Source of the DNA: an uncultured virus (IMG/VR IMGVR_UViG_3300048836_000122)
Taxonomy: Duplodnaviria; Heunggongvirae; Uroviricota; Caudoviricetes
Length of the DNA: 64,000 nucleotides
Direction: 5' to 3' (one strand)
Virus record (IMG/VR): IMGVR_UViG_3300048836_000122
The notes beneath the pieces were generated by a model. The model saw only the letters and a list, made by a program, of their open reading frames with translations. It was not told the DNA's origin and did not search any database. Positions 2,894 through 57,111 of this stretch are shown in pieces; within the stretch, counting starts at the first letter, position 1; every line of letters starts with the position of its first letter. The translations under genes and the position numbers were made by a program.

Positions 2894-5800
2894 GGTATAT
2901 CTTAATTTTCATGTTATTCACGTCCGGTCTGTTCGCCCAGCAGCAGAGTGAGACTATTCGAGGTTCAATGATAACCATCACTAAGGTACCACCGACATTC
3001 GTACCAGGACCGGGTGCGCCGTGGTTTGCAAAGGTGATCACTACGGGAGACTTCTACGAATGGGATTGGAATGAGAATACATGGCACAACACAGGAGCGA
3101 GGCTGTATGAGACTGGAACAAGCGGTGTACCTGCCTATGTACCGGGCGTATCACGGAAGGAATTTGCTATAAATTTAGAAGGGGAACTGTATTATTGGAC
3201 GGGTTCTTGGAACTTGATCACACCTGATTTAAGTGGTTATGTACAGTATTCTGACAGTTTGGCAACGTTTGTCACACCATCGCAGCTTTCAGATAGCTTA
3301 GATGGACATCTTACGTGGGCTGATACAGCCACGATAGCCACACAGTACTATGTGAATTCCCAAGGGTTCTTAACCGTAGAATTGGATGGAGACCCAACTA
3401 ACGAACTTCAAACATTGAGTATCTCAAATGATACTCTTTACCTGACAAGTGGGGGATTCGTTGTTTTACCGCCAAGTACAGATACATCTGGGTATAATCA
3501 AAGTTTGACATATAGCGGAGATACTCTGTATTTAACAGATGATGCAGGAACTATTTTCACGGTAATCCCTTCAGTTGATTTAACTGGATATTTAACTTGG
3601 TTAGATACTGTAACACTCGCTACTCAGAATTTTGTTTTATCTCAGGGATTTCTAACTGCGGAACTTGATGGCGATCCTACAAATGAACTTCAAAATATAT
3701 CTATTAATGTAGATACAGTCTTTCTTTCAAACGGAGGGTTTATTATTCTACCCCCTTCGGTATCAACAGATACTTCGGGATATAACATAGCGCTTTCGTA
3801 TAGTGGGGATACCTTGTATCTAACAGATGCAAACGGTACTTTAACGACTAAGATTCCTTTATCCGACAGTATAGCATCTGTTCGAGCAGAAATACCAGAT
3901 GTATCTATTTTTGTAGAATATGGAGACTCAAATATAGTATTTGTAACTCCTACGCAATTACAAGATACAAGTATCGCCATCCGTGCAGATTTCCCTATCA
4001 ATACAGATACGTCAGGATATAATCAGTCTTTGATTTTTAGCGGTGACACGCTATACCTTATAGACGGGAATGGCACATTGTTTGCCGTTATTCCTTCGGT
4101 AGATTTAACGCCTTACGTTCAATACACAGATAGCCTAACCGTATTTGTCACACCCTCTCAATTAGTGGATTCTATTAACGCTATCCCTCAGATTGATTTA
4201 ACACCATACGTTCAGTATGCAGACTCCTTAACGACTTTCGTTACCCCAAATATGCTTACGGATTCAAGCATTGCGATAAGAGGGGATTTTCCGGTCAATA
4301 CAGACGACCAAGCTATATCAATTGATTCAGTAGGGCGGTACTTCACCATCACACTTGAGGACGGAGGTATTGTTACTTTTCAAGACCAAGTTGGAATACC
4401 AGGAGGCGGTGACGATTGGGGAGCGCAGACCGTTGTAAGCGATGGAACATTGTCAGGAGTAGGTATAACGGGAGACGCTTTGAAAGTTGATACCACGATA
4501 ATCGCAACCAAGTCAGATATTCCAGTATTAACGGGGTACGTTCAATTTAGTGATTCACTTACTAGGTTTGTCACACCGGATATGTTAGACGACAGCACGG
4601 CAGCGGTTAGGGGTGATTTTCCCGTTAATACCGACACGCAAGATTTAAGTATTGATAGTACGGGGAGGTTTTTTACAATCAGTTTAGTAGATGGTGGTTC
4701 GGTGACTTTTGAAGACACGAATACAGAATACGATTTATCGGGGTACGTTGAATACGGTGACAGCCTTACTACATTTGTGACACCATCCCAACTTGTAGAT
4801 TCAATCAACGCAATACCCGCAGTTGATTTAAGTGGATATGTAGAGTTCTCAGATTCACTAACTACGTTTGTCACACCCACAATGCTAAACGATTCAGCCG
4901 ACGCAATACGGGGTGACTTTCCAGTCAACACGGACGAACAAGATTTAACCATCGGGGGAACTGGCCCAACTTACACCATAGATATAAGCGGTGGCAATGA
5001 CGTAACTATTTCAGCCGCTGGGATAGCAACACTAAGCGAACCAACGGCAAACACCTTGCTAATTACAGCCACAGAAGTAGATGGTTCGGTTACGAATGAA
5101 CTGCAAACCATAAGCACGTCCGGTGCTGCGGGTAATATTACGTTAAGTGATGGAGGTGGTACATTAAACTTAAATGTAAATGATGCAGATGCGAGTTCAA
5201 CAAACGAACTACAAACTTTGTCATGGTCTGCAGGAACAGCCGGTCAGGACGAAATAACGTTATCGAACGGAGGAGGTACAGTTACAATAACAGACGACAA
5301 TACACAACTAACAGACGAACAGGTACAAGATATTGCCGGTGGTATGGTTACAGGTAATACCGAGACCTTGATTACGGTAACTTATCAGGATGCAGACGGC
5401 ACGATTGACTATGTTGTAGATAATAATCTCGCTAACTATTCAAATGCAACGAGTCAATTTCTTACAGCAAATCAGTCTATAACATTAACCGGAGACGTTA
5501 CGGGCACAGGAACAACAGCGATAACGACAACAATTGCTACGGGCGCAGTTGGTTCAGATGAACTCGCAAGTACAGCGGTGACACCTGGCGCGTACACAGC
5601 GGCAAATATTACGGTAGATGCTGATGGAAGGATTACGGCAGCATCAAACGGAAGCGGAGGCGGAGCGGCAACGGGAAACATTGCAACCTTATCTGTCTAT
5701 AAAACCACAGACCAAACACTAACTACAACATATACTGATATTACATCATGGGCAACACCTCAAATTGAGGATGCACCATATACAATGAATACAACTTCTG

Positions 5801-7622: not shown

Positions 7623-10600
7623 ATGAGAGACATAGCGATCAACACCTTTCAAGGAGGACTTAACACAGATGTGGACCGGAGAATGACACCGGAGGGTGAT
7701 TGGATTGCTTCAAAGAACATCGTAAACTACCACCAAGGAAAAGACGGAGTAGTAAAGCCACTTTTGGGGAATGCAGAAATCCCATTAGCACCAATAAGCC
7801 TTCCAGACGGAATCAATCAATGCATTGGCAGCTATGAAGATGAACAAACAAAAAGTGTCATCTGGTTCAACTACAACTCCAACAACCAACACGGAATATA
7901 CCGGTACTGGCATGAGCAGTTCAAAGTGGACCAGGTAAAAATCTGGCCCAACTTTGACTTTGACCCTTCCAGGAAAATCACTGGTATCGCAGTAGTCGAT
8001 GGCCGCTATTTAATTTGGACAGATGTCCGGGCCACCCCGACAGAACTATCCGGTCAGCCGCTTGGAACGAATGCCGGGAATCAACCAAGATGTTTGGACA
8101 TGGAATATGCTACCTTAATCGGAGGAACATTCCTTGCGAATACAGGTAATGCATACAAGGCGTTGAGCTATGAGTTATTCATACACTTCAACCTTATCAC
8201 AGTTGAATCCATCCCGGACCCAATTCTAATCCAAGCAAGATTTACCAATATAGATGGAACAGTAGAACTAACACCGTTCACAACAATAGCGAGTATTCCA
8301 GCACAATCGATTCCGGACTTTGAAAACACCAAGGATGGAATCTATAACCAACTGGCACTTGCGATAGAAGCCCTCATTGCTGGATCGGTCGCCGAGGATA
8401 AACGAAAATATACAGAAATAACAATACCGCCTGGACTCATAGGCAGAAGGATGGAGGTTCAAGTTTTAAATAGTACAGAAGTAGTCGCTTACCTAAAACC
8501 TACAAATCATTACTACTTCCCACACATTGACGAGCAGTTTGACCTACACAAGCCAATGCCGCTTGATCACATTGATGCCGCCTACATTAAGCACGTCACG
8601 CAATTTGACGGACCGGATCCTATTTACAAAGACAATAGGTATAATTATGGGCGAAACACTCAATTCACATACAGATACATCTACTACGACAACAGCAGGA
8701 GTCCGTGGGCACCGTACAGCATTGTGCCAACGAACTATCAAACCAAAGACGACAACCCATTTGAGATAAAAGTGCGCAGGGAGTTCAGCGATATACTATT
8801 AAGGCTTCAAGACGATAAGTTGGTGGAAGCATGGACAGGATACATCAAGCAAGTAGAGATTGCGTACAGAACTTCCATAAACAACCCAATAGTAAGTATT
8901 GGTCGATTTTATCCATGGGATTTAAATGAGACCTTAGTTTACGGAGACACGCAGTACGCAAATGACGGATGGCAGAAGGTGTTCAAAGGAAACGAAACAG
9001 CGGTAGCTGTTGCGAGTGACGAAGTCGGGAGTACAGGCGACACGCAAGTATTAAAACTCTTTGATTGGATGCCAAAGCGAGTCAATGGGCTAACCACAGT
9101 GGCCGATGAATCTGGGCAATCCAGGATAATGATTGGAGGCGAAGCAATGGGATATGAAAACCCAATCGTAAAAGCCAATATAGAAGTGATATCCGCATTC
9201 ATACCATTGAGTTTTGGCATATCATTTGAACAACGGTCAAGAAAGTTCTTAAAGAAAGGCGGTCGATATGCCGTGTATATCAACTATTACGACAAAAAGG
9301 GATTTAGCCCTGGATCGATAAGAATAGGATATGCAGAAATACCTTACGATGGACAAGCACAGAACGTTCACTATCTACGAGTCACATTTGAAACACCAGC
9401 GCCATCATGGGCGGTTAGGTGGAGAATTGGTATAAGTAGAAACTTGACACAAGGAATTTATCAGCAAATGATAGGTGCTCGTGCATCAGCATTGTTAGTA
9501 TCCGAAAACGGAGCAGTTGTAACACCAACTACCTTCGACAATGCAACGCATCTTCAGATAAGGCTTGGAAGAAATAAGGTACCTGATCTTGCCGAGCAAG
9601 TAACACTATTTGATTGGGGGGAAAACACAACCGGTCAGATATATTGGGCAGCAGGACCGAAGGATAGGGTGCAGCTTGTTTTATATGGTATAGGCTTTAC
9701 GTTTGCGCCAAACCCGGGTGGATACTATGGCGAACCAAGGAATGTGCCATTTACAAACAGCTTAGACTCCCCACACTTCAATGCGCCTATTGTTGGGTAC
9801 ATGAGCGATGTAGGAACGAATTTTATATGGAGGTACTTGCTTATTGAAAAAGACGAAATATACAGAGAATGGTATGAATTTGATTATGCAGGAATAAATC
9901 TTGGTATAGCCCAGATGCTTGAGGTTTATAGACCATCTACCGTGTCCGAGGAGTTCGCGCATGAAACAACAGCCGACGGCAGAGTATATTTGGATGGAAA
10001 TACATACACACACTTACCTCAAGGAGATCCTCAGCGAATTGATGTTTTAGGAGGCGACACGTATTATCAATCCCCTAAGTTTGAAAGATCATCAGATACA
10101 TACTACTCTAACTTGTATTTGGAAACAAAAACACAGTACAACTGGAATGACGAGGAACTTGACGACTTTGGACGAGTATTTACACCGGAAGATGGTCGAG
10201 AAGAATACAACTACCAGCGGATAAGAATATCCGATGCATACACGCCATCAACCCGGATCAATGGATTGAGTGCTTTTCGAGGGCTTAATTTCATTGACAT
10301 AAACAAAAACTTTGGCCCGATCATGGCGCTGAAGAACATCCGGGATGACGTGGCGGCTATTTGTTGGAACAAGATTCAGCCTATTTATATAGGAAAAGGC
10401 CGAGTGCTTCAATTAGACGGACAAGAGCAAGTCGGAAGAAGTTCATCCTTGATGACACTTGCAGCACCTCTTATGGAGGATTTGGGAACACAGAACCCTG
10501 AAAGCCTGGTCAGTACCGGTCGATTAGTTTACGGCGTAGATAAGCGCATGGGCGTAGTATGGAGATATTCCAATGACGGACTTACGCCGATATCCTACTA

Positions 10601-11312
10601 TAAAAACATGAACAAGTTTAAGGATCTTCTTGTCGCTTCTGAAAGTTCATACACAGTAGGATTGTTTATACTTGGAGGATATGACCCAAGGCTAAAGATG
10701 TATTTCTTTTCATTAACGGCACATACATTATACGCTGATTCACGTGAACCTGTTCAAGTAGCTGGCAGGACATTTGGGTTTTGCGAAACCGACAACAATT
10801 GGAAGGACGAGTTCTCGTTTATTCCGGAAATGTATGGCGTAGGCGGTATTCACATGGTCAGCTTCAAAAATGGATCTCCATGGAAGCACAATCAAGCACT
10901 TGATGAAAACTTAGTAGCGATACCTCCATGTAATTTCTATGGGGGTCAGTATGTTCCGGAGTTGACCTATGTAGTCAATAAAAACCCGGGAACAACGAAA
11001 GTCTGGCAAAATTTAAGAATGCAGTCCAAAGCAAAATGGGAAGCTATTCAAATTATAATCCCGCCAAATGACAAATATCCACTTGGGATGTTGTCCAGGC
11101 TAAAGGCATCCAACATCACAAACAGAGAAGGGATGTTTTTGGCAGACTTCCTTCGAGACATTTATGATCCGGAGTTCAATACTGTGATATCCGCACTATT
11201 GAGAGGTCGGGTATTGCGAGGTGAGATTTTAATCGTATCTTTACAAGGCGAATTAGACAATGATTTGGTTCGCATAGACACTGAATACTTTCCATCAATG
11301 AAAACCAATTGA
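7623..11312 (+). CDS. tail stabilisation / nozzle protein (P22 gp10-like, crAss muzzle-like)
   Basis: 1229 aa; N-terminal NTFQGGLNTD..R..PEGDW..SKNI and C-terminal CNFYG..Y...L..VVN..P...KVW motifs typical of this family. Confidence 0.7.
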   Translation: MRDIAINTFQGGLNTDVDRRMTPEGDWIASKNIVNYHQGKDGVVKPLLGNAEIPLAPISLPDGINQCIGSYEDEQTKSVIWFNYNSNNQHGIYRYWHEQFKVDQVKIWPNFDFDPSRKITGIAVVDGRYLIWTDVRATPTELSGQPLGTNAGNQPRCLDMEYATLIGGTFLANTGNAYKALSYELFIHFNLITVESIPDPILIQARFTNIDGTVELTPFTTIASIPAQSIPDFENTKDGIYNQLALAIEALIAGSVAEDKRKYTEITIPPGLIGRRMEVQVLNSTEVVAYLKPTNHYYFPHIDEQFDLHKPMPLDHIDAAYIKHVTQFDGPDPIYKDNRYNYGRNTQFTYRYIYYDNSRSPWAPYSIVPTNYQTKDDNPFEIKVRREFSDILLRLQDDKLVEAWTGYIKQVEIAYRTSINNPIVSIGRFYPWDLNETLVYGDTQYANDGWQKVFKGNETAVAVASDEVGSTGDTQVLKLFDWMPKRVNGLTTVADESGQSRIMIGGEAMGYENPIVKANIEVISAFIPLSFGISFEQRSRKFLKKGGRYAVYINYYDKKGFSPGSIRIGYAEIPYDGQAQNVHYLRVTFETPAPSWAVRWRIGISRNLTQGIYQQMIGARASALLVSENGAVVTPTTFDNATHLQIRLGRNKVPDLAEQVTLFDWGENTTGQIYWAAGPKDRVQLVLYGIGFTFAPNPGGYYGEPRNVPFTNSLDSPHFNAPIVGYMSDVGTNFIWRYLLIEKDEIYREWYEFDYAGINLGIAQMLEVYRPSTVSEEFAHETTADGRVYLDGNTYTHLPQGDPQRIDVLGGDTYYQSPKFERSSDTYYSNLYLETKTQYNWNDEELDDFGRVFTPEDGREEYNYQRIRISDAYTPSTRINGLSAFRGLNFIDINKNFGPIMALKNIRDDVAAICWNKIQPIYIGKGRVLQLDGQEQVGRSSSLMTLAAPLMEDLGTQNPESLVSTGRLVYGVDKRMGVVWRYSNDGLTPISYYKNMNKFKDLLVASESSYTVGLFILGGYDPRLKMYFFSLTAHTLYADSREPVQVAGRTFGFCETDNNWKDEFSFIPEMYGVGGIHMVSFKNGSPWKHNQALDENLVAIPPCNFYGGQYVPELTYVVNKNPGTTKVWQNLRMQSKAKWEAIQIIIPPNDKYPLGMLSRLKASNITNREGMFLADFLRDIYDPEFNTVISALLRGRVLRGEILIVSLQGELDNDLVRIDTEYFPSMKTN

Positions 11313-29406: not shown

Positions 29407-30348
29407 GTGTTTATGGAACTAAAGGAAGCTGGACTAATTAAGGAGGTGAAACCGGAATTCTGCAAGTATGTAGAGCCGGAATTTTACCTATGGAGGTATG
29501 ATGCAGGCAATGATCGTTTTTACATGAGACTTGCCCAGGATGGAACAATTCTATCTCATTATTTATCGGTGACGGCATTTTGCAAAATGTCACTTTCTAC
29601 CTCTCCACACTTAATTGACTGGATGTTGAAACATGGCGACCAGGCAGTTAATATAAGAGACGAACGAGCTGCCTATGGAACCTTGCTTCACAAGCTGGCA
29701 GTAGATGGCATCTTGACACAGCGAGTGTCTTTTCAAGAAGCGAGAGAACATGCACTGATTGAAGCCAATACTACCGGATTTCCGGGTATGGCTATGAAGT
29801 GGCAAATGGATGTATGTGCTGACCTATGTGCGTTCTTCTTGTTTTACAAAGAGAAGGTCACGGACATAATCGGACTTGAGTTTCCCGTGGCATCGGACAC
29901 CTTCGGATTGGGAGGTACGATTGACATTATAGGAATGGTCCGGTTTAATCGCCGAGTAGTTCCTGCAATAATTGACATCAAGTCCGGCCGCAAAGGGTTT
30001 TGGGAAGCCCATGAACTTCAACTCCAAGTGTATAAAAAGATATGGAATGAAATGTTCCCAAATCTTCCAGTTTCGCATGTATTCAATTGGGCCCCGGCTG
30101 CATGGAAAACTGTTCCGAAATATAAGTTTGTCAATCAAACAGACAGCAAGTATTCTACCACGGTAGTCAGTAGAATGCGAATAGCCAAGAATGAAGCATG
30201 GAATAAACCTCCCAAGGAGCGTCTATGGTTGGATGGTGAGTTCAACGTCAGAGACTTCGTTCCAGAAAGACATATCAAGATGCTTTCACTGAAAGAGATC
30301 GAAGCAGAAGCCGCATTTTTCCCTGAAACTGAAAGCGATGAATCTTGA
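29407..30348 (+). CDS. PD-(D/E)XK exonuclease
   Basis: YGTLLH, GGTIDII, IIDIKSG and ELQLQVY motifs. Confidence 0.75.
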   Translation: MFMELKEAGLIKEVKPEFCKYVEPEFYLWRYDAGNDRFYMRLAQDGTILSHYLSVTAFCKMSLSTSPHLIDWMLKHGDQAVNIRDERAAYGTLLHKLAVDGILTQRVSFQEAREHALIEANTTGFPGMAMKWQMDVCADLCAFFLFYKEKVTDIIGLEFPVASDTFGLGGTIDIIGMVRFNRRVVPAIIDIKSGRKGFWEAHELQLQVYKKIWNEMFPNLPVSHVFNWAPAAWKTVPKYKFVNQTDSKYSTTVVSRMRIAKNEAWNKPPKERLWLDGEFNVRDFVPERHIKMLSLKEIEAEAAFFPETESDES

Positions 30349-30588: not shown

Positions 30589-31530
30589 ATGCAAATTATT
30601 TCATTAGAAACCGGGATACGTCCCGATGACTCGAAAGAGATTAAAAGCGCCTTTGAGGAGTTTGTAGAACAGACACACGAATGGGCAAATAAGGCCATGG
30701 CTATTATTGTCTTGGCAGAGGACGACATTCAAGGCATGGAGCAAGCAGCCAAGGCAGACAAAGCATTGCGAGCCCTTCAAAAAGAAGTGGAGGACACGCA
30801 TAAGAGGATGAAGGCTGATTCCCTTGCGTATGGCCGGGCATTGGACGAGGTGAAACGCAACTTCAATGCAGTCATTGAACCTGCACGAACACATTGCAAG
30901 GAAATGGCTTCGTTCGCAGAAACCATGGAAAAGAAACGGCAGGAAGAATTGAAAGCTAAGCGCATGGAGGAGATGAAAGACCTCAATGTGAATTTGGCCC
31001 ACTATGATCTTGCTACTATGCCGGAGGATCTGTACCAAGCAACTTTGAGTGGGCTACGGATGCAGAAGAAAGCAGCAGAGGCTGCGAAGAAAGCCGCTGA
31101 GAAGGAAGAGGCTGAACGCAAAGCAGAGGCTGCGAAATTGGCAGCAGAGAACAAAGCATTGCAAGAGCGAGCCAAAGAAGCTGAGGCGAAGGCCAAAAAA
31201 GCTACGGAAGATGCCAAAGCTGCCAAGGCACGAGAGACTGCAAGAGATCGCCAGTCAAACCTTCTGAAAAAAGGATATTTCTATGACGGCACTAATTTTG
31301 TACTTGGAGACAACAAAATCAGTCCGGCTGAACTGTTGTCGCTGTCTAATGCAGAATACACACAACGGGCCAAGGTCACAGGCAATCAGGACAAGGCTTT
31401 ACTATTGGCTTATGCAACGAACATAAAGTATGTTCCCAAACTAAAGGATGCAACGCTTCATGCACGAATTCAGGAAGATGTCACCAAACTTGTTCAATCC
31501 ATAGAAGCGGTAGCCAATGGTCTTCTTTGA
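30589..31530 (+). CDS. coiled-coil protein (DUF1351-like)
   Basis: Ala/Glu/Lys-rich helical protein in the recombination module. Confidence 0.5.
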   Translation: MQIISLETGIRPDDSKEIKSAFEEFVEQTHEWANKAMAIIVLAEDDIQGMEQAAKADKALRALQKEVEDTHKRMKADSLAYGRALDEVKRNFNAVIEPARTHCKEMASFAETMEKKRQEELKAKRMEEMKDLNVNLAHYDLATMPEDLYQATLSGLRMQKKAAEAAKKAAEKEEAERKAEAAKLAAENKALQERAKEAEAKAKKATEDAKAAKARETARDRQSNLLKKGYFYDGTNFVLGDNKISPAELLSLSNAEYTQRAKVTGNQDKALLLAYATNIKYVPKLKDATLHARIQEDVTKLVQSIEAVANGLL

Positions 31531-41770: not shown

Positions 41771-42274
41771 TTACAAAGTTTGATAAACGTTTTCAATTAC
41801 TTCATCAGTAAGTCCGATATACCTGCGAGTAGTTTTCTCGCTGTCATGGTTAAGAAGGTGAGAGGCTACGGTGATCCCGTGCTTTCTATAAACTTCCTTG
41901 GCAAAGGTCTTTCGCAGGAAGTGAGTGGACTGTTCAGGCAGTTTAAGTTTAGCCTGGATAGCCTTTATCCGGTGGTTAGCTCCTTGGATGGTTAGCCGTT
42001 GACCTGGCTTTCTTTTCGGATGCAAAATGTATCCATTTCCGGAGTGAGATTGGAGAATTTTCCGTAACTTGTGGTTCACGGTGATGATTGCTGTCTTGCC
42101 GGTTTTCTGTTCTTTGACAACAATCTTATCTTCGAAAATATCCTCCCACCGGAGATTGGACACATCGCTGAACCTCCTTCCGGTGTACAGCATAAGAGCG
42201 AATAAGAGCTGGTCTTGTCCATCGAGCATATCGAGGCATTGCTCGGCATGGTTAAAGTCTATGGGCGTGGTCAT
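41771..42274 (-). CDS. small tyrosine recombinase (catalytic domain only)
   Basis: YTGRRFSD (R), EQKTGK (K), THFLRKT (HxxR), LNH (H), TRRYIG (Y). Confidence 0.9.
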   Translation of the reverse strand: MTTPIDFNHAEQCLDMLDGQDQLLFALMLYTGRRFSDVSNLRWEDIFEDKIVVKEQKTGKTAIITVNHKLRKILQSHSGNGYILHPKRKPGQRLTIQGANHRIKAIQAKLKLPEQSTHFLRKTFAKEVYRKHGITVASHLLNHDSEKTTRRYIGLTDEVIENVYQTL

Positions 42275-48856: not shown

Positions 48857-49198
48857 ATGCTAAAAGAACTATGTGCGAGAATTGAAAGTCGTCTGATGTA
48901 TGCGGACAAGATGTATCCGGGGATTGTGTATCATGCGAGTGTAACGTATGACTGCTCAGAAGTAGAATGGGCGTTAATCGTAGCGGAGTTACCGGAGAGC
49001 GGGAAAGACTATGTGTACAGTGAGCGGATGATTAATGGGGACATGGTAATGACCTGTGAGTTTGACCACGAGGTAAATGTCCGGTTAGGTCATTGGTTAG
49101 TGCCGGTCTCTGTGCAGGTAGGCGACTTGGGCTTGGACATAGACTACTTTAGAATAAAGGACGAAATCAAAACGATGTTAACCGTAAAATCAAACTAA
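48857..49198 (+). CDS. hypothetical protein
   Basis: 113 aa, TAAATTTG box at 48845, coupled to groEL. Confidence 0.5.
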   Translation: MLKELCARIESRLMYADKMYPGIVYHASVTYDCSEVEWALIVAELPESGKDYVYSERMINGDMVMTCEFDHEVNVRLGHWLVPVSVQVGDLGLDIDYFRIKDEIKTMLTVKSN

Positions 49199-50628
49199 TG
49201 ATCACAATTAATGACGACAAGAAGGAGGTTTATGCCGGTATTCAGAAGAATGCAGACATAGTAGGAAGCACGATGGGCCCTTATGGGCGAAACGTGACAG
49301 TTGACTTAGGGCATGGGATGGCAACGTTTAAGGACGGAGTAGGTGTCTCCAAGTTAATGAAGTTTGCAAATCCCTGGGAGCGGATAGGTTCTCATATAGT
49401 AACCACGGCATGTAGGCGGACAGTCGAGTTGGCAGGAGACGGAACAACAGCCACGGCGGTACTTGTGAGAGAGCTGTGTAAAGAGTATCGGAATGAAGCT
49501 GAATTGCGAGACGAGATCGACATGATTTGTGAGCGAATCCGAGAATTAGCTATACCGATAGTACGGGATGGATTTATTGACCGGGGAATGCTTTATGATA
49601 TAGCGATGATCAGTTCAAACGGACGAGCGGATATATCTAAGTTGATCACGGATGTGCGGATGAAGATTGGAGTGTATGGCCAGATAAAGGTGGAGCATGG
49701 CGACAAGCTCGAGAGTGAAATCTTGAGCGGGTATGCATATCGGGGAAATGTGCTGGCGCATCAGTTTTTCAATGGAGCGAATAAGTTGGAGTTGGAAAAT
49801 TGCAGAGTAGTTTTGGTGAATGAAGAAATCCAGAAGATTGAGAAACTGAAGGAGGTACTTGGTAAGAACGCTGCTCGAGTATCTAAGGGGTCCACAGAAC
49901 CGCTGGTAATAGTATGTGGAGCAACAGGAGGAGCGTTGAGTACACTTGCGGGGAACATTCAGCGGTTTAAAAATGGTGAAAAAGTTCCGGAAATCTACTT
50001 GGTAAGTTTACCGGAGTTTGGGGAAGAGCGGCATGAAATGATGGACGACATGGCAGCAATTTACGGCACCCGGGTGTTCAATCACATGCGAGGCATGGAG
50101 TTAAAGACATTCGTAGATGCGGATTTCGGGTCTGGACGGCTGAGTGTAAAGAACGGAATGGTCTTTTGCTTCTCAGATCGAAATATCGATTCCCATATCG
50201 AATTCGTGAAAGAGCAAGGCCGGGCAAAGCGGTTGGCACTTCTGACCGGTGGGATAGGCATTATTCGAATTGGAGGTGAAACCGAGTTGGAGTCCACGAA
50301 CAATCAAGAAATCATTGACGATACAGTTCGAGCCGTAGGAAGCGCAATGGAATCGGGAGTAGTACCTGGCGGCGGCCGGTGTTTGGAATCACTTGGTATA
50401 AAATGGCTGCGAGGTCCGAAGGAACAGATATGGAAAAATGCTGATAAAAAATGCCCGGTAGAAAAATGCTCTCCATGGCGAGGGCGGGTAATAGGCGGTG
50501 AAGAAGTGGACTTGTTAAAGGAAGGGATCATAGATCCAGCGAAAGTAGTAATCAGTAGTGTTCGCAGTGCAGGCAGCGCAGCAATACAATTCATGACGAC
50601 AAAATATTTTTTGAAATATGACGCCTAA
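49198..50628 (+). CDS. groEL: phage chaperonin, GroEL-like (divergent, 476 aa)
   Basis: STMGPYGRNV, TFKDGVGV, AGDGTT, GVVPGGG, GIIDPAKV. Confidence 0.9.
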   Translation: MITINDDKKEVYAGIQKNADIVGSTMGPYGRNVTVDLGHGMATFKDGVGVSKLMKFANPWERIGSHIVTTACRRTVELAGDGTTATAVLVRELCKEYRNEAELRDEIDMICERIRELAIPIVRDGFIDRGMLYDIAMISSNGRADISKLITDVRMKIGVYGQIKVEHGDKLESEILSGYAYRGNVLAHQFFNGANKLELENCRVVLVNEEIQKIEKLKEVLGKNAARVSKGSTEPLVIVCGATGGALSTLAGNIQRFKNGEKVPEIYLVSLPEFGEERHEMMDDMAAIYGTRVFNHMRGMELKTFVDADFGSGRLSVKNGMVFCFSDRNIDSHIEFVKEQGRAKRLALLTGGIGIIRIGGETELESTNNQEIIDDTVRAVGSAMESGVVPGGGRCLESLGIKWLRGPKEQIWKNADKKCPVEKCSPWRGRVIGGEEVDLLKEGIIDPAKVVISSVRSAGSAAIQFMTTKYFLKYDA

Positions 50629-50881
50629 TAAAGGAATGGTACTCGTAGAAGTACTTGAACAAGACTCCTACAACCCGGAAACGGGTATCACAGAGTCCTA
50701 TACGTCCGAAGTAAGCCCGACAGCTATAATAATGGCTATTGGAGAACCGGACATGATGGGCGAGTGTGTTGGAAAGATCGGCCAGAAGGTACATGTACCT
50801 ACAAGCGGAGCCGACCAGCTTACGATTGAAGGAAAATTATGTGCGGTAGTACATCACAGTAAAATTCGTTTATTCTTTTAA
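50618..50881 (+). CDS. groES: co-chaperonin GroES-like
   Basis: P....VLVE, IMAIG, KIGQKV, IEGK pattern; adjacent to groEL. Confidence 0.65.
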   Translation: MTPNKGMVLVEVLEQDSYNPETGITESYTSEVSPTAIIMAIGEPDMMGECVGKIGQKVHVPTSGADQLTIEGKLCAVVHHSKIRLFF

Positions 50882-51133
50882 AATCATTACTCATGGAAAA
50901 AAAATTGAAAGCAGCCGGATTTGTCCGGCATGGATCAGGTTTCCGCAAAGGAGACACGGAAGTTGTTATTTCAGACGGCAGACTGTATCGAAAGGTAGCG
51001 GATGCGAAATCTCGAAAAGGCTACCGATTGGAGTTGTTTGAGTTACCCGGCGAGGAATAATTCGTAGTCAACGCAGATGGTGGGGGTAGCGAGGGGCTGC
51101 CCCCAATTTAAAAAATCAGGAAAACAATTTAAT

Positions 51134-51334
51134 ATGGATGCTTTTTTAGAAAGGTTGATTAACGAAGAGAAAGAACTCGGTGAAAAAATCACTGGTTTAA
51201 CTAAGGCTCTTCACAGTGACGGATTTAGTCAAAAGGTTGGAGATTATCAATTTTCGCTTTTGTCTTTGCAACACAGCACAATGATTGCGTACCGTCAAGT
51301 TTTGATTATGAGAATAGCTGACCTCAAAATTTAA
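51134..51334 (+). CDS. crAss001 gp48-like helical protein
   Basis: FLERL..E..EL..KI..L...LL..Q...M..Y..VL..RI pattern. Confidence 0.55.
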   Translation: MDAFLERLINEEKELGEKITGLTKALHSDGFSQKVGDYQFSLLSLQHSTMIAYRQVLIMRIADLKI

Positions 51335-51810
51335 TACGAAGCAATGAATATAGCTGTTATAGGTAGTATTTTGAGGTGGGGTTTCAGAATAATAAACTGG
51401 AATCACTTTAGAATAAAAGCCCATAATGGCAAACCGAGAATAAAGCGGATAATCAAATTGAAAGGATTTAGAACAGCGTTGATTGAAGAATATAACGGTA
51501 ATAGATGTACTTCACGATTTTACTGGCGTGTCGGCATTTGGTTAGGTGCTGTTATGTGCCGTTTATTTCATCCGATTGAAACGCTTGAAAACTGTTCATT
51601 TGTGGATAGTGTATCAGGTAAATCAGTAGGTAAATTTCGGTGCAAAAAATGTAATGCAGAATGCTAATGGTAAAAGAGATATTTTTAGGTGCTACGTTTA
51701 AATGGCACATAACGTATAGGTATATGGTTTGTGCCTTTTGAAAAACAAACCTTTGAATTATTAACCGACCCTTTTTCTTTTATTTTTTGAGCGAGGGCAA
51801 AAAACAAATT

Positions 51811-52164
51811 ATGAAACTAAAAACACGAATTAAACGAGCATTAGCAGGTTTTTTAAGAGAGGAATTACTGGAATATATTGGGTATAATCACCGAATACCT
51901 TATATGGGTTTGAATGACCGATTTAATGTTCAAAACCTGCCATTTGAAACTATGGTAATGGAAGTTGAAATACCTATTGAAATGGATAGTAGAATGGGGT
52001 ATGAAGACCCTACAAGACTTGAAAAGCATATTGAAGATTGTAAACGCAGATTTGCTGAACAGGTAATGGAACACATTCACGTTGATGCTCAAAACCTGAC
52101 GACAAGAGAGCATTTTATGAGACGAAGTGTTCGTTTTGTTTTACGTGTGCAGGGGAAAAAATAA
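51811..52164 (+). CDS. hypothetical protein nested in the loop of an attC-like hairpin
   Basis: ATG 51811; flanked by a perfect 18-bp inverted repeat at 51771 and 52156. Confidence 0.65.
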   Translation: MKLKTRIKRALAGFLREELLEYIGYNHRIPYMGLNDRFNVQNLPFETMVMEVEIPIEMDSRMGYEDPTRLEKHIEDCKRRFAEQVMEHIHVDAQNLTTREHFMRRSVRFVLRVQGKK

Positions 52165-52318
52165 AAGAAAAAGATTGAAAGCACGAAACTTTGATACAGC
52201 ACGGACTTTAGGCATAAACTATATACCGTGTTGTAGCATCGTTTTAATGTGCTACAACGGTAGGTAGCTAACCGAAGGCGGTGATTTAAAAACAGAAATA
52301 ATTAAATAACACAGAAGT

Positions 52319-52531
52319 ATGAATACAGAAGAAACTTTCAAAGAAAAACGACACCACCGCTTTTGGTTAGGTGCTGTTATGTGCCGTTTATTTCATCCGA
52401 TTGAAACGCTTGAAAACTGTTCATTTGTGGATAGTGTATCAGGTGAATCAGTTGGTAAATTTCGGTGCAAAAAGTGCAATGCAGAATACCTTGCTAATAG
52501 TAAAAGAGATATGTTTAGGTGCTACGTTTAA
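52319..52531 (+). CDS. cassette protein with Zn-ribbon (a degenerate duplicate lies at 51551-51713)
   Basis: CRLFH...CKKC; near-identical DNA at about 51537-51715 with a small frameshifting deletion. Confidence 0.6.
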   Translation: MNTEETFKEKRHHRFWLGAVMCRLFHPIETLENCSFVDSVSGESVGKFRCKKCNAEYLANSKRDMFRCYV

Positions 52532-52801
52532 ATGGCACATAACGTTGAGTGTAACCGCAGTAGGCACACTTGACAAACCCCGACAATAGGCACAGGCAGC
52601 GTTTGTAAAATGATGAACGAACAAATTTTAGAACGATTAAGAAAGGAATTTGCCTTTGTTGGTGATGAAAAAATATCAGGACATACGGCAATGAAGTTTC
52701 GGAGAAAGCCCGAAGGGATTTCTCCGAAACGGCATCTGGCTTGGCGATGCTGCCGAACACAAATGTTAATTAGAATTACAAAACTTTAAATTATAGATAA
52801 A

Positions 52802-53122
52802 ATGTCAAACGAAGAACAAAACGGCAATATTGCCAAACCCGTGTTATGCGATGATTTGCGTGGGCTTATTAAAGGCTCGTTTGGAATAGCAATGAACGCC
52901 AATGATTTTTTTAATTATGCGTGTGCTGATATGGTATTGATAGATTCACAAGATTTGGAATGGGTGCTTCCTATTTACAAAAAGTATAGTTGGAAAGGTG
53001 TAGATGCTTGTATGGCTTTTATAGCAAAGCAAATGCCGATAAAACCACACATTACAAAAGAGTTTGAAGAAGCGTATGCAGAAATTGAAAAAATCAACCC
53101 TAAAGTTTATTCGGAGTATTGA
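52802..53122 (+). CDS. cassette hypothetical protein
   Basis: Starts in the hairpin loop and reads through GTTATGCGA at 52843. Confidence 0.65.
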   Translation: MSNEEQNGNIAKPVLCDDLRGLIKGSFGIAMNANDFFNYACADMVLIDSQDLEWVLPIYKKYSWKGVDACMAFIAKQMPIKPHITKEFEEAYAEIEKINPKVYSEY

Positions 53123-53252
53123 GCGTGATAAGCAAATTTTCGCATAACGTTGAGTATATGGTGCGTAGCCGACACCTTAAACCTGGCTATTTAACACAAA
53201 TGTTTAATCGGCTATGCACTATATACAGTGTTAGCCATAGTACGGTATAATT

Positions 53253-53840
53253 ATGAAAATATTAGTTGCGTGTGAAGAATCACAAACAGTATGTAAAGCA
53301 TTAAGGGCAAAAGGTCACGAAGCTTATTCTTGTGATATAATTGAATGTTCTGGTGGCAAACCCGAATGGCACATCCAAGATGATGCTATAAAAGTGGCTT
53401 ATGACAAAAGTTACAATTGGGATATGATGATAGCACACCCACCGTGTACTCACTTGGCTGTAAGTGGTGCGAGATGGTTTAAAGAAGGTGTAAAGCCAAT
53501 CTCATTACAAATTGAAGCCGCAGAGTTTTTTATGAAATTGGTTAATGCTCCAATTGAAAAAATTGCAGTTGAAAATCCAATATGTGTAATGAGCACGAAA
53601 TACAGGAAGCCCGACCAAATTATTAACCCTTTTCAATTTGGGCATCCTGAGCAAAAGAAAACTTGTTTGTGGTTAAAGAATTTACCAAAACTAAAGGAAA
53701 CAAATAATGTTTATGATTACATGATGACCTTGCCTATTAAAGAGCGAACAAGAATACATTGGTTAGGTAGTGGTAAAAGTAAAGAGCGTTCAGTAACTTA
53801 CCAGGGGATTGCTGATGCTATTGCGGAACAATGGACGTAG
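53253..53840 (+). CDS. cassette-borne C5 DNA methyltransferase-like protein
   Basis: ILVACEES, SCDI, AHPPCT (catalytic PC), VENP, QFGH..KKTCLW. Confidence 0.75.
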   Translation: MKILVACEESQTVCKALRAKGHEAYSCDIIECSGGKPEWHIQDDAIKVAYDKSYNWDMMIAHPPCTHLAVSGARWFKEGVKPISLQIEAAEFFMKLVNAPIEKIAVENPICVMSTKYRKPDQIINPFQFGHPEQKKTCLWLKNLPKLKETNNVYDYMMTLPIKERTRIHWLGSGKSKERSVTYQGIADAIAEQWT

Positions 53841-54005
53841 TATTATGGCTAACGTTTCGCATATTGCCGAAGGTGGCAATTTCGGAGCAGAAAACTTGAA
53901 ACTTAAATAAATGTTTAACCGAAGCAAAAATGTTCACTTAACCACAGACCTGCCACTTTTGGCAATATGCTGTTATGTGCCGTTTTTCTTCACAAATTAA
54001 TAAAT

Positions 54006-54263
54006 ATGAACTGGAAAAGATACCGTTTAAAAACTTATGCTGTTAGCGACAACAGACCGTTAATCTTCAATCCTAAATATCCTTGGTGGTGTTCAGGTTA
54101 TGGTGAAGATGAAAAAGGCGAATACTCTGTAATAATTGCGTATTTACCAAAGGATGAAGATTTATTAAAGTATTGGGATGATGCTTTTGATGTGGAATTT
54201 ACAGAAGAAGAAAGCATAAGTTTTTCTGATAGATTTCCGAAACCGAGTTACTTCGTGTCTTAA
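54006..54263 (+). CDS. cassette hypothetical protein
   Basis: YPWWCSGY..YW..F.DRFPKP; stop lies just before GGCACATAAC. Confidence 0.65.
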   Translation: MNWKRYRLKTYAVSDNRPLIFNPKYPWWCSGYGEDEKGEYSVIIAYLPKDEDLLKYWDDAFDVEFTEEESISFSDRFPKPSYFVS

Positions 54264-54464
54264 AATGGCACATAACGTTTTGCGGCTTGGCGAAGGCTGC
54301 CTAACGATATTTTTAATATTCGCACGAATTTCATGGCAGCTTTTGCCAAACCGCTGTTATGTGCTTCAAGAATACAAGCAATGGTTAATTGATAAACGTC
54401 TGGTTAAGGAGGTTCAGTAGCCTTGCAGGTAACGTTTAGTATAAAAAACAATAAACTTTCGGAT

Positions 54465-54740
54465 ATGACAAACGATAATAAAAAACAAAAACTTTCGGAC
54501 AGCACGGACACCGCTATTGACGGTTATACATTGTTACCTGCCGTTTTTTGTCACAGGATTAGAGCAGGAAAGTATTATGTCAAAATTGGCGAACACGAAT
54601 ACGAAATTTACAATCACGGGTATTATCCACCTGATAAATGTATTTGGTGGGAAGCGACAAACTTGAAAACGAATGAAGCTGATTTTCACGAACACACCAA
54701 ATTTCAACTATTAGAAACTATGAAACGTGAACTGTCTTAA
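54465..54740 (+). CDS. cassette hypothetical protein
   Basis: ATG in the spacer, reads through GTTACCTGCC; stop just before GGCAGGTAAC. Confidence 0.6.
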   Translation: MTNDNKKQKLSDSTDTAIDGYTLLPAVFCHRIRAGKYYVKIGEHEYEIYNHGYYPPDKCIWWEATNLKTNEADFHEHTKFQLLETMKRELS

Positions 54741-54894
54741 AATGGCAGGTAACGGCTGACGCTATACGAAGGCAGGGGTTAAGATGCACTCCCTTTCAGC
54801 CTTGCATAAATGATAAAAGATGCACACCGCTCACTTTAGCAGTACGCCCCTGCTTTTGTATAGCGTATGTTATAGGGCGTTTTATTTTAATTGT

Positions 54895-55116
54895 ATGGAA
54901 TTTTACGGAAGTATCAGAATAAAAAAAGCTGCCACTTTACAAAGTTGGATTGATAAGGGATGGTATCAAAAAGAGATTGATAAGGGATATACATTTGCAC
55001 CTGCTTGTGGTAGATTTCGTATTGGCAAGTGCGAATGTTCAAGATGTCAAAGACCTAACGGTGGATGGGAGAAGAAAGCTGTTTTGGAGCGTAACGGTCT
55101 TTTAAATGCCCTATAA
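54895..55116 (+). CDS. cassette hypothetical Cys-rich protein
   Basis: CECSRC; the TAA stop lies inside GCCCTATAAC. Confidence 0.6.
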   Translation: MEFYGSIRIKKAATLQSWIDKGWYQKEIDKGYTFAPACGRFRIGKCECSRCQRPNGGWEKKAVLERNGLLNAL

Positions 55117-55168
55117 CTCCTATATGTATCAAACCCTCACAATTTATTATAAACCAAACAATTGCATT

Positions 55169-55393
55169 ATGAATATCGGAAAGTATGTACAACAGTATTC
55201 CGAAGACCTTCGGCTCAAGAATTACGCTGAGAATACCATCAGGAATTATGCCGCGCAGGTGGATTCCTTTCTTAGACATTTCCAGTCGGTGGCTACCAAA
55301 CCCAGCGAAATATCTGAGCGACAGATCAAAGCATGGTTGGCTAAGACAATTAATACGCGTAAACATCGCTTATCAGTATTGGAAAGGTGTTAA
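55169..55393 (+). pseudogene. truncated tyrosine integrase (N-terminal SAM-like domain only)
   Basis: EDLRLKNYAENTIRNYAAQVDSFLRHF..PSEISERQIKAWL matches integron-type/Xer-like integrase N-termini; stops after 74 aa with no catalytic residues. Confidence 0.75.
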
Positions 55394-55456
55394 AGATGCG
55401 ATTTCGTCTTTTTAGCATTTCCGATAACTTTCTAAACAGTTCAAAAAATTGAACCA

Positions 55457-55864
55457 ATGAAAGCAATACTAATTAGTATAATTTTCCTACCAATACTCGG
55501 ATATGGACAGATGATGGACGATTTTAGACGTTACATCCGGGCAGATACGGTGAAGTTTGACACTATAAGGTATTTAGAGGATATGGTTCGAGAGTCATGG
55601 TGTGATTCATCAGCAGATATAAGATATGATTTAGAGGATTTGATTATTATTGACAAGTGCGAAATAAGAGGCCATGTATGGACACCCCACTATGTTACTG
55701 ACTTAGTGTATTATCCAAACGAGGCAAGACTGGTTGATTCCGATAGCATGACAGTAATGATTTACCCTGCAAAATACTCGTTTGAGAAGTGTGTGAGGTG
55801 TGGGGAAATCAAAAAAACGAAGGAAAGTGATGAAATTCACAAATTACTTTGGAGGAAAAAGTAG
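55457..55864 (+). CDS. secreted hypothetical protein
   Basis: MKAILISIIFLPILGYG|Q signal; C..GH.W and CVRCG. Confidence 0.55.
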   Translation: MKAILISIIFLPILGYGQMMDDFRRYIRADTVKFDTIRYLEDMVRESWCDSSADIRYDLEDLIIIDKCEIRGHVWTPHYVTDLVYYPNEARLVDSDSMTVMIYPAKYSFEKCVRCGEIKKTKESDEIHKLLWRKK

Positions 55865-55914
55865 TATCTTTGAGTACGCAACCATAACGAGTTTAGAATA
55901 GGAAAATAAGAAGC

Positions 55915-57111
55915 ATGATTAAGTCACACGTCATAAAACTACACCCCACAAAGGGGCAGGAGGCTTTCTTCCGAAAGTCCTCTGGCGTGTCACGTTTTGC
56001 CTACAACTGGGCTTTACAGCGATGGAAAGAGATTTACGAAGAAACAGGAAAGGGTACATCGGCTTATAGCCTGATTAAGGAGTTGAATAGTATAAAGCGA
56101 GAGGAGTTTCCATGGATGATGGAGGTTGGGAAGTGTGCGCCACAATATGCAATTCATAACTTGGAAAGTGCATTTAAGCGATTCTTCAAGAAAAACGCCA
56201 AGTACCCTGTATTCAAGAAGAAGGGTCGGAAAGATTCTTTTGTGGCGGTTGAGAATAAAGAGCAATTCAAGCAGTCTGGACTAAAATTATGGATACCAAG
56301 ATTGGGATGGGTGAGATGTGCGGAGGAGTTACGATTTAATGGGAAGGTAAATAACATGACGGTGAAGCGCATAGCAAATATGTGGTTTGCCGTGGTAAAC
56401 GTAGATACCCAGGTACAACCTACAGTATGTGAGAACCAAACTGTTGTAGGCGTGGACTTGGGTATTAAATATATGGCTGTGTGTAGCGATGGACGAGTAT
56501 TCGAGAACCCCAAATCTCTTTCTAAGAGATTAGAGGCGTTGCGGACAGCGCAGCGAAAGTTGAGCCGGAAGCAGAAAGGTTCCTCCAATTGGAAAAAGCA
56601 GGTAGCACGAGTTGGCAGGATTCACTACAAAGTGACTTGCGCTCGAAAGAATGCAATACACCAAGCAACGTCAGAGATAGTAAAATCGGCAGGCGTAATC
56701 GTATTGGAGGACTTAAATGTTAAGGGAATGGCCCGAAACAAAAAGTTGGCCAGAGCGGTTAGCGATGCAGGGATGGGTGAATTTCGCAGACAGATCGAGT
56801 ACAAAGCATCATGGGCCGGAGTAGAGGTAGTAATTGTAGATCGGTGGTTTCCATCATCTCAATTAGACCACAAGACCGGAGAGCGACACAGCATCACACT
56901 AAAAGACCGAATGATATATCATTCGGATGGAACAAGTACATGCCGGGACTTAAATGCGGCAATGAACTTAAAGAACTACTATACCGGGAAAGTCTCGGGA
57001 ATAAACGCCTCCGGAGTTGATGTAAGACCTGTTTTACAGGCAAGCGACGATGAACGAGGAATTGGATTTGTTAACAATAAAATCTTAAAACTTTGGCTAA
57101 GATCATCTTAA
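55915..57111 (+). CDS. tnpB: TnpB-family RNA-guided endonuclease, Zn finger degenerate
   Basis: SRFAYNWAL; RuvC motifs GVDLG, VLEDL and RDLNAA; CxxC pairs absent. Confidence 0.9.
   Translation: MIKSHVIKLHPTKGQEAFFRKSSGVSRFAYNWALQRWKEIYEETGKGTSAYSLIKELNSIKREEFPWMMEVGKCAPQYAIHNLESAFKRFFKKNAKYPVFKKKGRKDSFVAVENKEQFKQSGLKLWIPRLGWVRCAEELRFNGKVNNMTVKRIANMWFAVVNVDTQVQPTVCENQTVVGVDLGIKYMAVCSDGRVFENPKSLSKRLEALRTAQRKLSRKQKGSSNWKKQVARVGRIHYKVTCARKNAIHQATSEIVKSAGVIVLEDLNVKGMARNKKLARAVSDAGMGEFRRQIEYKASWAGVEVVIVDRWFPSSQLDHKTGERHSITLKDRMIYHSDGTSTCRDLNAAMNLKNYYTGKVSGINASGVDVRPVLQASDDERGIGFVNNKILKLWLRSS

Follow-up and report, generated by a model that had tools for sequence, protein, structure and literature searches.

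The 64,000-nucleotide (nt) stretch of DNA analyzed here (the window), from an uncultured virus of the Caudoviricetes (IMG/VR record IMGVR_UViG_3300048836_000122), contains between 51.5 and 55.4 kb an array of small genes alternating with imperfect hairpins. We consider it probable that this region is the relic of an integron-like gene-capture platform carried by a phage, a platform of reversed polarity whose hairpins fold from the coding strand; this assessment applies to the reading as a whole, its mechanism included. The reversed polarity is supported, on sequence comparison, by evidence that is independent of the wobble pairs in the hairpin stems. A broader proposal, that Bacteroidota phages, among them cultured flavobacterial phages, crAss-like phages, and a phage of 642 kb, run a mirror-image integron of their own, with a compact Xer-like recombinase, coding-strand hairpins, and G·T pairs as the strand mark, is possible, and we advance it tentatively.

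Hairpins and Their Wobble Pairs

The units of the array follow one order on the plus strand. The stop codon of a gene lies in a box that ends in TAAC and is followed by G and about four unpaired bases, a stem of 18–21 bp, a loop of 30–110 nt, the return arm, one or two unpaired bases, and GTTA with the rest of a second box, after which the next gene begins. The boxes that flank one gene match each other in six of the seven window cassettes (e.g., GTTATAGGGCGTTT ... AAATGCCCTATAAC), the exception being the 3′ remnant of a gene at 54357–54433, and the boxes that flank one hairpin often agree only in TAAC/GTTA. The corresponding R-box motif TGTTATGTGCCGTTT, searched with at most three mismatches, has 11 occurrences in the window, where 2.49 would be expected; none of 100 shuffles reached this number, and 10 of the 11 occurrences lie inside 51550–54882.

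The initial annotation of this region had observed that the imperfect positions of the hairpins are mostly G-T pairs on the plus strand, and our analysis confirms this: six hairpins on the plus (coding) strand between 52256 and 54871 contain 12 G·T and two C·A pairs as their non-Watson–Crick pairs. A strand-symmetric finder that accepts G·T and C·A equally returned five AAC...stem...loop...stem...GTT elements on the plus strand, with 10 G·T and two C·A pairs, and hairpin E2, identified by an inverted-repeat search and by reading of the sequence, contributes the two further G·T pairs. The three arm pairs that had been quoted are in place, with arms of 20, 20, and 16 nt that are 90%, 90%, and 88% complementary; two more long hairpins lie at 53154–53172/53208–53226 and 54282–54301/54335–54354, and the inverted repeats of the window overall have arms of 16–20 nt that are 85–90% complementary. 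In four of the window hairpins the wobbles fall within one conserved motif, CGAAGG paired with CTTTTG, and are thus not independent events; they represent a fixed feature rather than scattered, tolerated mismatches.

Folding of both strands, the check that the initial annotation had called for, favors the plus strand. Treated as single-stranded DNA (ssDNA), the plus strand is more stable than the minus strand in all five long-stem hairpins of the window, by 1.0–5.5 kcal/mol (4.7–13.6 kcal/mol with RNA parameters). Nine segments were folded in all, and the plus strand was better in six; the other three (E3, E7, and E9) have no long stem and show no such bias. A covariance model built from 22 elements matches the window five times, between 52256 and 54358 and on the plus strand only, and when filters are turned off, plus-strand scores at the two best sites are 66.5 and 75.2 bits, versus 13.6 and 18.6 bits for the minus strand.

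The hairpins belong to a family that is found in other phages. A scan of viral contigs with a 15-base R′ motif, on which our locus counts are based, identified at least 120 loci (designated L followed by a number), and the counts that follow are for the loci listed from it. We found 216 hairpins (201 unique) in 84 of the 120 loci, which, when oriented by their longer spacer, contain 306 G·T and 102 C·A pairs. The hairpin sites of L001–L138 fall into two length classes, 85–88 nt and 122–124 nt. Among 141 well-formed unique elements from other phage contigs, the non-Watson–Crick pairs occupy fixed stem positions. Pairs with G on the 5′ arm and T on the 3′ arm number 220 and are located 14 nt from GTT in 125 of the 141 elements (the G at this position is always on the 5′ arm), 11 nt from GTT in 49, and 9 nt from GTT in 34; the 52 pairs with C on the 5′ arm and A on the 3′ arm are concentrated 5 nt from GTT (40 elements). 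The opposite orientations, T·G (14) and A·C (16), have no fixed position. With DNA parameters the plus strand folds better in 110 of the 141 elements, by a mean of 1.6 kcal/mol, and with RNA parameters in 107, by a mean of 3.1 kcal/mol. An alignment of 22 elements reveals that 18 of 20 stem pairs change on both sides, that one pair is G·U in all 22, and that AAC and GTT are invariant in all 22. The wobble strand is also the coding strand: in 74 units defined by the R′ motif and, within 1.6 kb, its reverse complement (at most one mismatch), the longer open reading frame (ORF) is on the wobble strand of the hairpin in 72. The same hairpins are present in the 642-kb record LR756502, in Cellulophaga phage phi18:3, and in Polaribacter phage P12002L, where they are on the coding strand and adjoin methyltransferase genes.

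These properties can be compared with those of the attC sites of integrons. The premise of the initial annotation, that the bottom strand of attC is the better-folding strand, agrees with Nivina et al. (2016; PMC5027507), according to whom folding of the bottom strand is favored by 2.12 kcal/mol across 263 attC sites, with 1.24 G:T pairs on this strand versus 0.39 on the top strand. The mean gain of the plus strand in our 141 elements is similar to this bias reported for the recombined attC strands.

Breakpoints of Shared Cassettes

The ends of sequence blocks shared between contigs indicate which hairpin travels with a gene. An all-versus-all blast comparison of the listed loci yielded 636 blocks of at least 100 nt and at least 78% identity, of which 544 start within 30 nt of the AAC of a hairpin. 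By span, 336 blocks extend from AAC to GTT (hairpin only), 186 from AAC past GTT into the leader or gene, eight from AAC to the next AAC, and four from GTT to AAC. None of the 636 blocks from the listed loci covers a gene and stops at the GTT of the downstream hairpin. We also examined 69 units flanked on each side by 100 nt of sequence, which form 30 gene-sharing pairs; after exclusion of four pairs from the same genomic region, 26 pairs from nine gene families were retained. The 100 nt upstream of the gene are at least 85% identical in 18 of these pairs and at background in the remaining eight; the loci have a single R′ type in common, and the upstream background is therefore itself high (95th percentile 0.91). 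The 100 nt downstream are at background in all 26, so that the downstream hairpin is common to none of the pairs. The initial annotation had named cassettes in other genomes that consistently travel with their downstream hairpin as one of two outcomes that would contradict it, the other being equal folding of both strands.

Individual cases make the junctions explicit. L030 and L114 share 287 nt at 100% identity with TAACGG bounding the block on both sides, and L003 and L075 are another of the clearest cases. The segment 54750–55117 of the window is identical (100%, gapless) to positions 44–411 of a 29,267-nt contig from run X5, which represents another sample; the match begins at the T that precedes AAC in hairpin E8 and ends at the C of the last AAC. 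Neither flank is shared by the two sequences, and the match is followed by an attI-like sequence, ATACAATATGTGAG. For the window gene at 53967–54263, L082 shares the upstream hairpin and the gene (88.8% identity, starting from AAC) and L041 shares the gene only (95.6% identity, starting from GTT).

Judged by these block ends, AAC is the main junction and GTT a minor one, and the crossover at AAC that the initial annotation had proposed is borne out by shared blocks bounded by AAC on both sides. Comparison among contigs shows the predicted mobile cassette to begin at the C of one AAC and to end with the AAC that follows. Its parts are, in order, a spacer of 5–6 nt, a stem of 18–21 bp, a variable loop, a spacer of 1–2 nt, an R′ box (GTT...), a single small gene, and an R″ box, which ends in AAC and matches the R′ box of its own gene. 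In this layout a hairpin goes with its downstream gene, and the mobile unit is the upstream hairpin plus the gene, again as had been suggested.

Blocks of this kind might also result from ordinary homologous recombination between phages at short conserved blocks, without a dedicated site-specific reaction. Gene shuffling at promoter/stem-loop modules has been proposed for T4-type phages. The R boxes of 15–17 nt and the whole hairpin families that are common to many contigs are compatible with this explanation, as are blocks that end at the GTT box or near ATG instead of at AAC. We nevertheless regard it as very unlikely. The best junctions (L030/L114 and the X5 contig) share only TAAC(GG) between otherwise unrelated flanks, which is too short for homologous exchange; the block ends are strongly one-sided, with 544 of 636 left ends at AAC; and the arrays occur together with a recombinase gene and a conserved attI-like site.

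The attI-like Site and the Recombinase

A conserved attI-like site, AAC followed by TACTATATGTA, is located at the ends of the arrays. In the window and in all 16 recombinase loci, a variable box ending in TAAC is followed by T(A/C)CTATATGTA, 50–115 nt before the start codon of a recombinase gene. Full-length relatives of the recombinase (260–278 aa) are encoded in 15 of the 16 viral loci, and the gene of L129 runs off the end of its contig. Hairpins that match the covariance model lie upstream of the recombinase gene in all 16 loci with more than 1 kb of upstream DNA (14 viral loci together with L138 and L139), and the model matches at the recombinase loci are all on the strand of the gene, except for one reverse reading of a plus-strand match in L138. 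No model match was found downstream of the recombinase gene in the 16 loci, over as much as 7.4 kb searched. Because the attI-like site and the co-directional recombinase gene are downstream of the arrays, the cassette genes point towards attI, as the initial annotation had predicted.

Among one genome per species of 185,579 prokaryotes, only about seven contigs encode relatives of the recombinase with at least 38% identity, and three of these keep the layout described above. GenBank phage records contain no close relative (best identity 34%; seven records at E values up to 1e-20), and the DNA matches in these records are mostly to methyltransferase cargo. The recombinase relatives score below the cut-offs of the XerA, XerC, XerD, and integron-integrase models; with TIGR02249 they reach 139–169 bits against a cut-off of 265, and the match is in two stretches. 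Among solved structures, archaeal XerA (E 6.8e-38) and IntI4 (2a3v; E 9e-33) come closest. IntI4 likewise aligns in two stretches, which are separated by 18 residues in the phage protein versus 61 in IntI4; the IntI insertion is thus absent, and the system is not a canonical integron.

The recombinase gene of the window (55169–55393, plus strand), which is Xer-like and of the tyrosine recombinase family, is cut and encodes the first 74 of about 278 residues. The remainder was not found anywhere in the window, and because the gene stops there, the array is probably immobile unless the enzyme comes from a co-infecting phage. A fragment of a tyrosine recombinase catalytic domain (167 aa) at 41771–42274 on the minus strand was considered as the missing half and rejected as unrelated (25% identity over 32 aa). 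A putative insertion element in the region of 55457–57111 may have removed the rest of the gene. A separate observation concerns LR756502 (L137), in which the attI-like sequence and the recombinase leader up to the ATG occur twice inside the array, at approximately 5690–5770 and 6085–6160; both copies are bounded by AAC, and the arrangement looks like a platform remnant turned cassette.

The features presented so far bear on another possibility, that the array is a fragment of an ordinary integron, namely an integrase-less group of attC sites with canonical polarity, in which each gene owns its downstream hairpin and the noncoding strand recombines between the G and the TT of GTT. The AAC/GTT cores, the variable stems, and the size of 85–125 nt resemble attC, and in Qi et al. 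(2023) sites of this kind in phage P12002L appear as attC in an integrase-less cluster. The build of the sites is of the attC type (an imperfect inverted repeat, R″ ending in AAC, a variable loop, paired L boxes, and GTT at the start of R′), and the array, with at least six such sites and a recombinase gene cut to 74 residues, is a candidate for a cluster of attC sites lacking an integrase (CALIN), a term for two or more attC sites that have no functional integrase near them. The breakpoint counts contradict canonical polarity, however, since none of the 26 gene-sharing pairs has the downstream hairpin in common and no block among the 636 covers the gene and then stops at the downstream GTT; in addition, the wobbles favor the coding strand, and the recombinase gene is downstream and encodes a protein without the IntI insertion. 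We consider an integron fragment of canonical polarity most improbable.

Proposed Strand Choice and Mechanism

According to Nivina et al. (2016), the cut by IntI falls in the 5′-AAC-3′ of the folded strand, and the recombined strand has its bulged bases opposite the AAC arm. A crossover at the AAC of the plus strand thus points to the plus strand as the one that recombines. By analogy, we infer that the coding strand would fold as ssDNA and that the recombinase would cut it in the 5′-AAC-3′ of the 5′ arm of the hairpin, as IntI does on attC bottom strands, after which one strand would be exchanged with attI or with another hairpin. The fixed G·T pairs and the frequent C·A pairs, at set distances from the core, would mark the strand able to fold into a usable site and would take over the role that bulged bases have in classical attC sites. 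Upstream phage transcription presumably would read through the cassette genes.

The main rival explanation accepts that cassettes move as described and places the selection for G·T in the transcript, where hairpins in the 5′ untranslated region or in intergenic mRNA could act in stability, processing, or control of translation; the bias would then be uninformative on which DNA strand recombines. The plus strand is the mRNA strand, so that selection for G·U pairs in RNA would give the same bias. The coincidence of wobble strand and coding strand in 72 of 74 units is in line with this idea, as is the larger gain in folding energy with RNA parameters (3.1 vs. 1.6 kcal/mol); both the identity of the strands and the larger gain also count against our own reading. 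Many ORFs start inside the loop, which makes the hairpin part of the message, and the hairpin together with the leader up to the start codon is often common to different genes, as in the 186 blocks that run from AAC past GTT. Against selection in the transcript, the wobbles are fixed in position and in one orientation (220 with G on the 5′ arm vs. 14 T·G), and C·A recurs at one position on the same strand in 40 of 141 elements, which simple tolerance of G·U does not predict. Moreover, the size of the bias is close to that reported for recombined attC strands, and the crossover at the 5′ AAC independently indicates the same strand. On balance, we think selection at the mRNA level an unlikely source of the bias.

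Several further observations weigh against a reversed platform that recombines its coding strand. We infer both the single-stranded folding and the activity of the recombinase from sequence, and the enzyme does not have the IntI insertion, a presumed requirement for attC hairpins. The AAC arm carries the extra unpaired bases, as in the nonrecombined top strand of classical attC sites, and P12002L_attC1, the only member of the family tested in print, did not recombine with IntI1. The energy gain with DNA parameters is small, and 29 of the 141 elements fold better on the minus strand. Eight of the 26 gene-sharing pairs do not have a common upstream hairpin; their blocks begin at GTT or close to the start codon, which implies a second point of exchange. 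Finally, the loci used for the counts were chosen by one R′ motif, and the pairing of 96% of stem positions is partly built in because the finder demands pairing.

Composition of the Array

All features of the array are on the plus strand. Its first unit, at 51537–51713, is a 5′-truncated and frameshifted duplicate of the cassette at 52259–52543 that keeps part of the 3′ arm; its R′ box, GTTATGTGCC, is at 51551–51560, and its R″ box ends in AAC at 51711–51713. Identity with 52362–52545 starts inside the 3′ arm (tttggttaggtgctgttatgtgcc) and stops at cacataacgt, two bases past AAC, and this first copy has neither the 5′ arm nor the loop and shows a 5-base deletion. The initial annotation had described the duplication accurately and had also taken it as evidence for the position of the crossover; this second point does not stand, because the left end is an irregular truncation in the 3′ arm and does not itself locate the crossover. 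After the AAC comes E1 (51714–51745), a short R″/R′-like palindrome without a long stem, and then a cassette ORF of 117 aa without a family match (51811–52164). A mini-hairpin at 52230–52258, composed of R′ GTTGTAGCA, loop TCGTTTTAATG, and R″ TGCTACAAC, has the form of an "empty cassette," and its loop recurs in phage P12002L. Mini-hairpins with the loop CGTTTTAATG are present in the window (52230–52258), in L004, L006, and L021, and on the minus strand of L219 (approximately 29990–30060 and 30870–30930). Mini-hairpins of this type, with abutting R′ and R″ boxes, look like cassettes after gene loss.

Hairpin site E2 (AAC ... GTT; 52256–52378) has a 16-bp stem with two G·T pairs (covariance model 39 bits, E 1.6e-07). 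The 70-aa cassette ORF at 52319–52531 begins in its loop and crosses the 3′ arm and R′ box, and this cassette has about 76% DNA identity to a cassette family of L044, L064, and L076. A degenerate unit (52544–52727), with a partnerless sequence resembling a 5′ arm, follows the AAC at 52541–52543 and is accompanied by a 59-aa ORF (52610–52789) that runs into the next hairpin. This hairpin, E3′ (52728–52845; 46.6 bits), has a 15-bp stem with two G·T pairs and one C·A pair and is 89% identical to a hairpin of L055; the 106-aa ORF that starts in its loop (52802–53122) is associated with the matched flanking boxes GTTATGCGA and TCGCATAAC. Site E4 (53146–53232), with a 19-bp stem and two G·T pairs, scores 66.5 bits on the plus strand and 13.6 on the minus strand and precedes a cassette gene for a DNA methyltransferase (53253–53840; phrog_757, E 9.2e-64) that matches methyltransferase genes of other phages. 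Site E5 (53851–53974; 46.9 bits) has a 20-bp stem with two G·T pairs (CGAAGG/CTTTTG), and the 98-aa ORF at 53967–54263 has a later ATG, at 54006, as its likelier start. Site E6 (54274–54358), with a 20-bp stem, two G·T pairs, and one C·A pair, scores 75.2 bits on the plus strand and 18.6 on the minus strand. Joined directly to the R′ box of E6 is the 3′ remnant of a cassette gene (54357–54433), which over 77 nt is 97.4% identical to the end of an intact cassette gene in LR756502. The weak site E7 (54431–54535), with matched boxes GCAGGTAAC and GTTACCTGC, contains in its loop the beginning of a cassette ORF (54465–54740). Site E8 (54751–54871), with a 20-bp stem and two G·T pairs, is matched weakly by the covariance model (E 0.12); with the ORF ending at 55116 it forms the complete attI-proximal cassette (54750–55117), and the attI-like junction, the last AAC followed by TCCTATATGTATC, is at 55115–55130.

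Several of these ORFs thus start within a hairpin loop and read through the 3′ arm (52319, 52802, and 54465), so that the 3′ arm and the R′ box are translated. Blocks shared between contigs sometimes stop at GTT or at the start codon, which suggests swappable protein N-termini at these positions. For the family as a whole, we scanned 52 of 66 distinct cassette ORFs. The products include 10 MT-A70 methyltransferases, one methyltransferase of the D12 class, one Dam, two RNA ligases, and one DUF1660 protein, and 37 of the 52 have no family; DNA methyltransferases make up about a quarter of the cargo tested.

Genomic Setting

The window derives from a crAss-like phage according to Pfam matches, which include the crAss muzzle protein (7623–11312), a 3963-aa polyvalent protein, and a DnaB helicase; a crAss001_48-related protein (Pfam) is encoded at 51077–51334. 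The plus strand carries nearly all of the long ORFs of the window, and the hairpin array is within a block of small plus-strand ORFs. Chaperonin-like genes, one GroEL-like and one weakly GroES-like, are directly 5′ of the array (49198–50881). GC skew on the plus strand is positive in 28 of 32 2-kb windows of positions 1–64000; if GC skew mirrors the direction of replication, the plus strand would be the lagging-strand template and transiently single-stranded. Rfam (gathering cut-offs) and tRNA scans of the window gave no match. The pattern TTTG-N17–21-TAnnTTTG is the promoter pattern of Bacteroidota; it is absent from both strands of 50501–55500, in a search too weak to settle how the cassettes are transcribed. 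At most 11% of the sampled words of 51300–55400 are present in any sequencing run; the four runs compared with the window consist of contigs, and the one marked as possible RNA is probably DNA.

Directly after the point at which the recombinase gene breaks off, 55457–57111 encodes an uncharacterized 135-aa ORF and then TnpB (IS605 OrfB; 55915–57111). The presence of the tnpB gene raises the possibility that a HUH transposase of the IS200/IS605 type moves single-stranded cassettes and inserts them 3′ of TAAC, with TnpB as part of the system. The units do insert after TAAC and end in TAAC, and the hairpin is strand-specific. In disagreement with this idea, the 53 window ORFs scanned include no gene for TnpA (Y1), a unit has a single hairpin rather than left-end and right-end hairpins, and the conserved neighbor in all 16 loci is a tyrosine recombinase, not TnpB. 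The probability that such a transposase is responsible appears to us to be minimal.

Comparison with Known Systems

The array shares with integrons its one-gene cassettes between imperfect palindromes, the AAC/GTT cores, variable and covarying stems, variable loops, matching R boxes at both ends of a cassette, an insertion site next to a tyrosine recombinase gene whose direction is away from the site, and G·T pairs that favor one strand to about the same extent as in attC bottom strands, according to the source cited above. Recombination of a folded single strand, which integrons resolve by replication, would be a further parallel, suggested by the strand-biased wobbles and the position of the crossover. 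It differs from integrons in several respects. The phage recombinase (266–278 aa) does not have the IntI insertion in its catalytic domain. The hairpin belongs to the downstream gene and the genes point towards attI, instead of each gene being followed by its own attC; an attI-like site is present beside the recombinase gene, but the cassettes are upstream of it and are read towards it, whereas integron cassettes are read away from attI from a Pc promoter. The stems are continuous, with fixed G·T or C·A pairs and without bulged bases, and the spacer on the AAC arm is longer (5–6 vs. 1–2 nt). The system is carried by phages, with methyltransferases and RNA ligases as cargo.

Two other systems use hairpins of single strands. 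The array resembles IS200/IS605 elements in its strand-specific hairpins and in insertion on the 3′ side of a short target, which the end of the element restores; those elements, unlike the array, require a HUH (Y1) transposase, no gene for which was found among the 53 window ORFs scanned, and a hairpin at both ends, against a single hairpin per unit here. XerCD integrates CTX phage at an attP that is folded from one strand, by exchange of a single pair of strands and without an IntI insertion; this reaction places the whole phage genome into a chromosomal dif site and involves no gene-cassette array. A Xer-type recombinase without the IntI insertion that acts on a single-strand hairpin would be common to CTX integration and, by our interpretation, to the array, and the cassette array distinguishes the latter.

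The closest record identified in our literature search is Qi et al. (2023; PMC9892861), and the search found no description of a phage recombinase combined with an attI-like site and reversed cassettes. The available excerpts of that paper report integrase-less attC clusters in virulent phages, including Polaribacter phage P12002L, in which hairpins of the family described here flank methyltransferase genes on the coding strand; the oligonucleotide P12002L_attC1 is one of these hairpins and was the sole nonrecombining site of six. In those excerpts the sites are read as canonical attC and tested with the bacterial IntI1, and a phage recombinase, an attI-like site, or reversed polarity is not described. 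The rAID-1 clusters of Bacteroidales, whose intergenic repeats are called reminiscent of integrons by Ross et al. (10.1101/471110), resemble the array in the association of a XerD-like tyrosine recombinase with co-directional small accessory genes and in their Bacteroidota hosts. The recombinase gene is at the 5′ end of the row in rAID-1 and at the 3′ end in the window and all 16 loci, and rAID-1 is a bacterial locus with immunity genes, unlike the phage-borne array.

Implications

If the broader proposal of a phage mirror-image integron is correct, recombination of single-strand hairpins would not be tied to the IntI insertion and would either be older than integrons or have arisen twice. The platform would provide a natural test of the requirements for recombination of folded DNA, with an enzyme that lacks a supposedly essential domain and with wobbles instead of bulges. 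Tools for finding integrons would assign the wrong polarity to such platforms or miss them, and a small recombinase with structure-defined sites could serve as a genetic tool. For the phages themselves, counter-defense genes could pass as units of hairpin plus gene between unrelated phages, and virulent phages would have a dedicated site-specific exchange of single genes, which would partly account for the rapid turnover of counter-defense genes and for the mosaic "accessory" regions in phage genomes.

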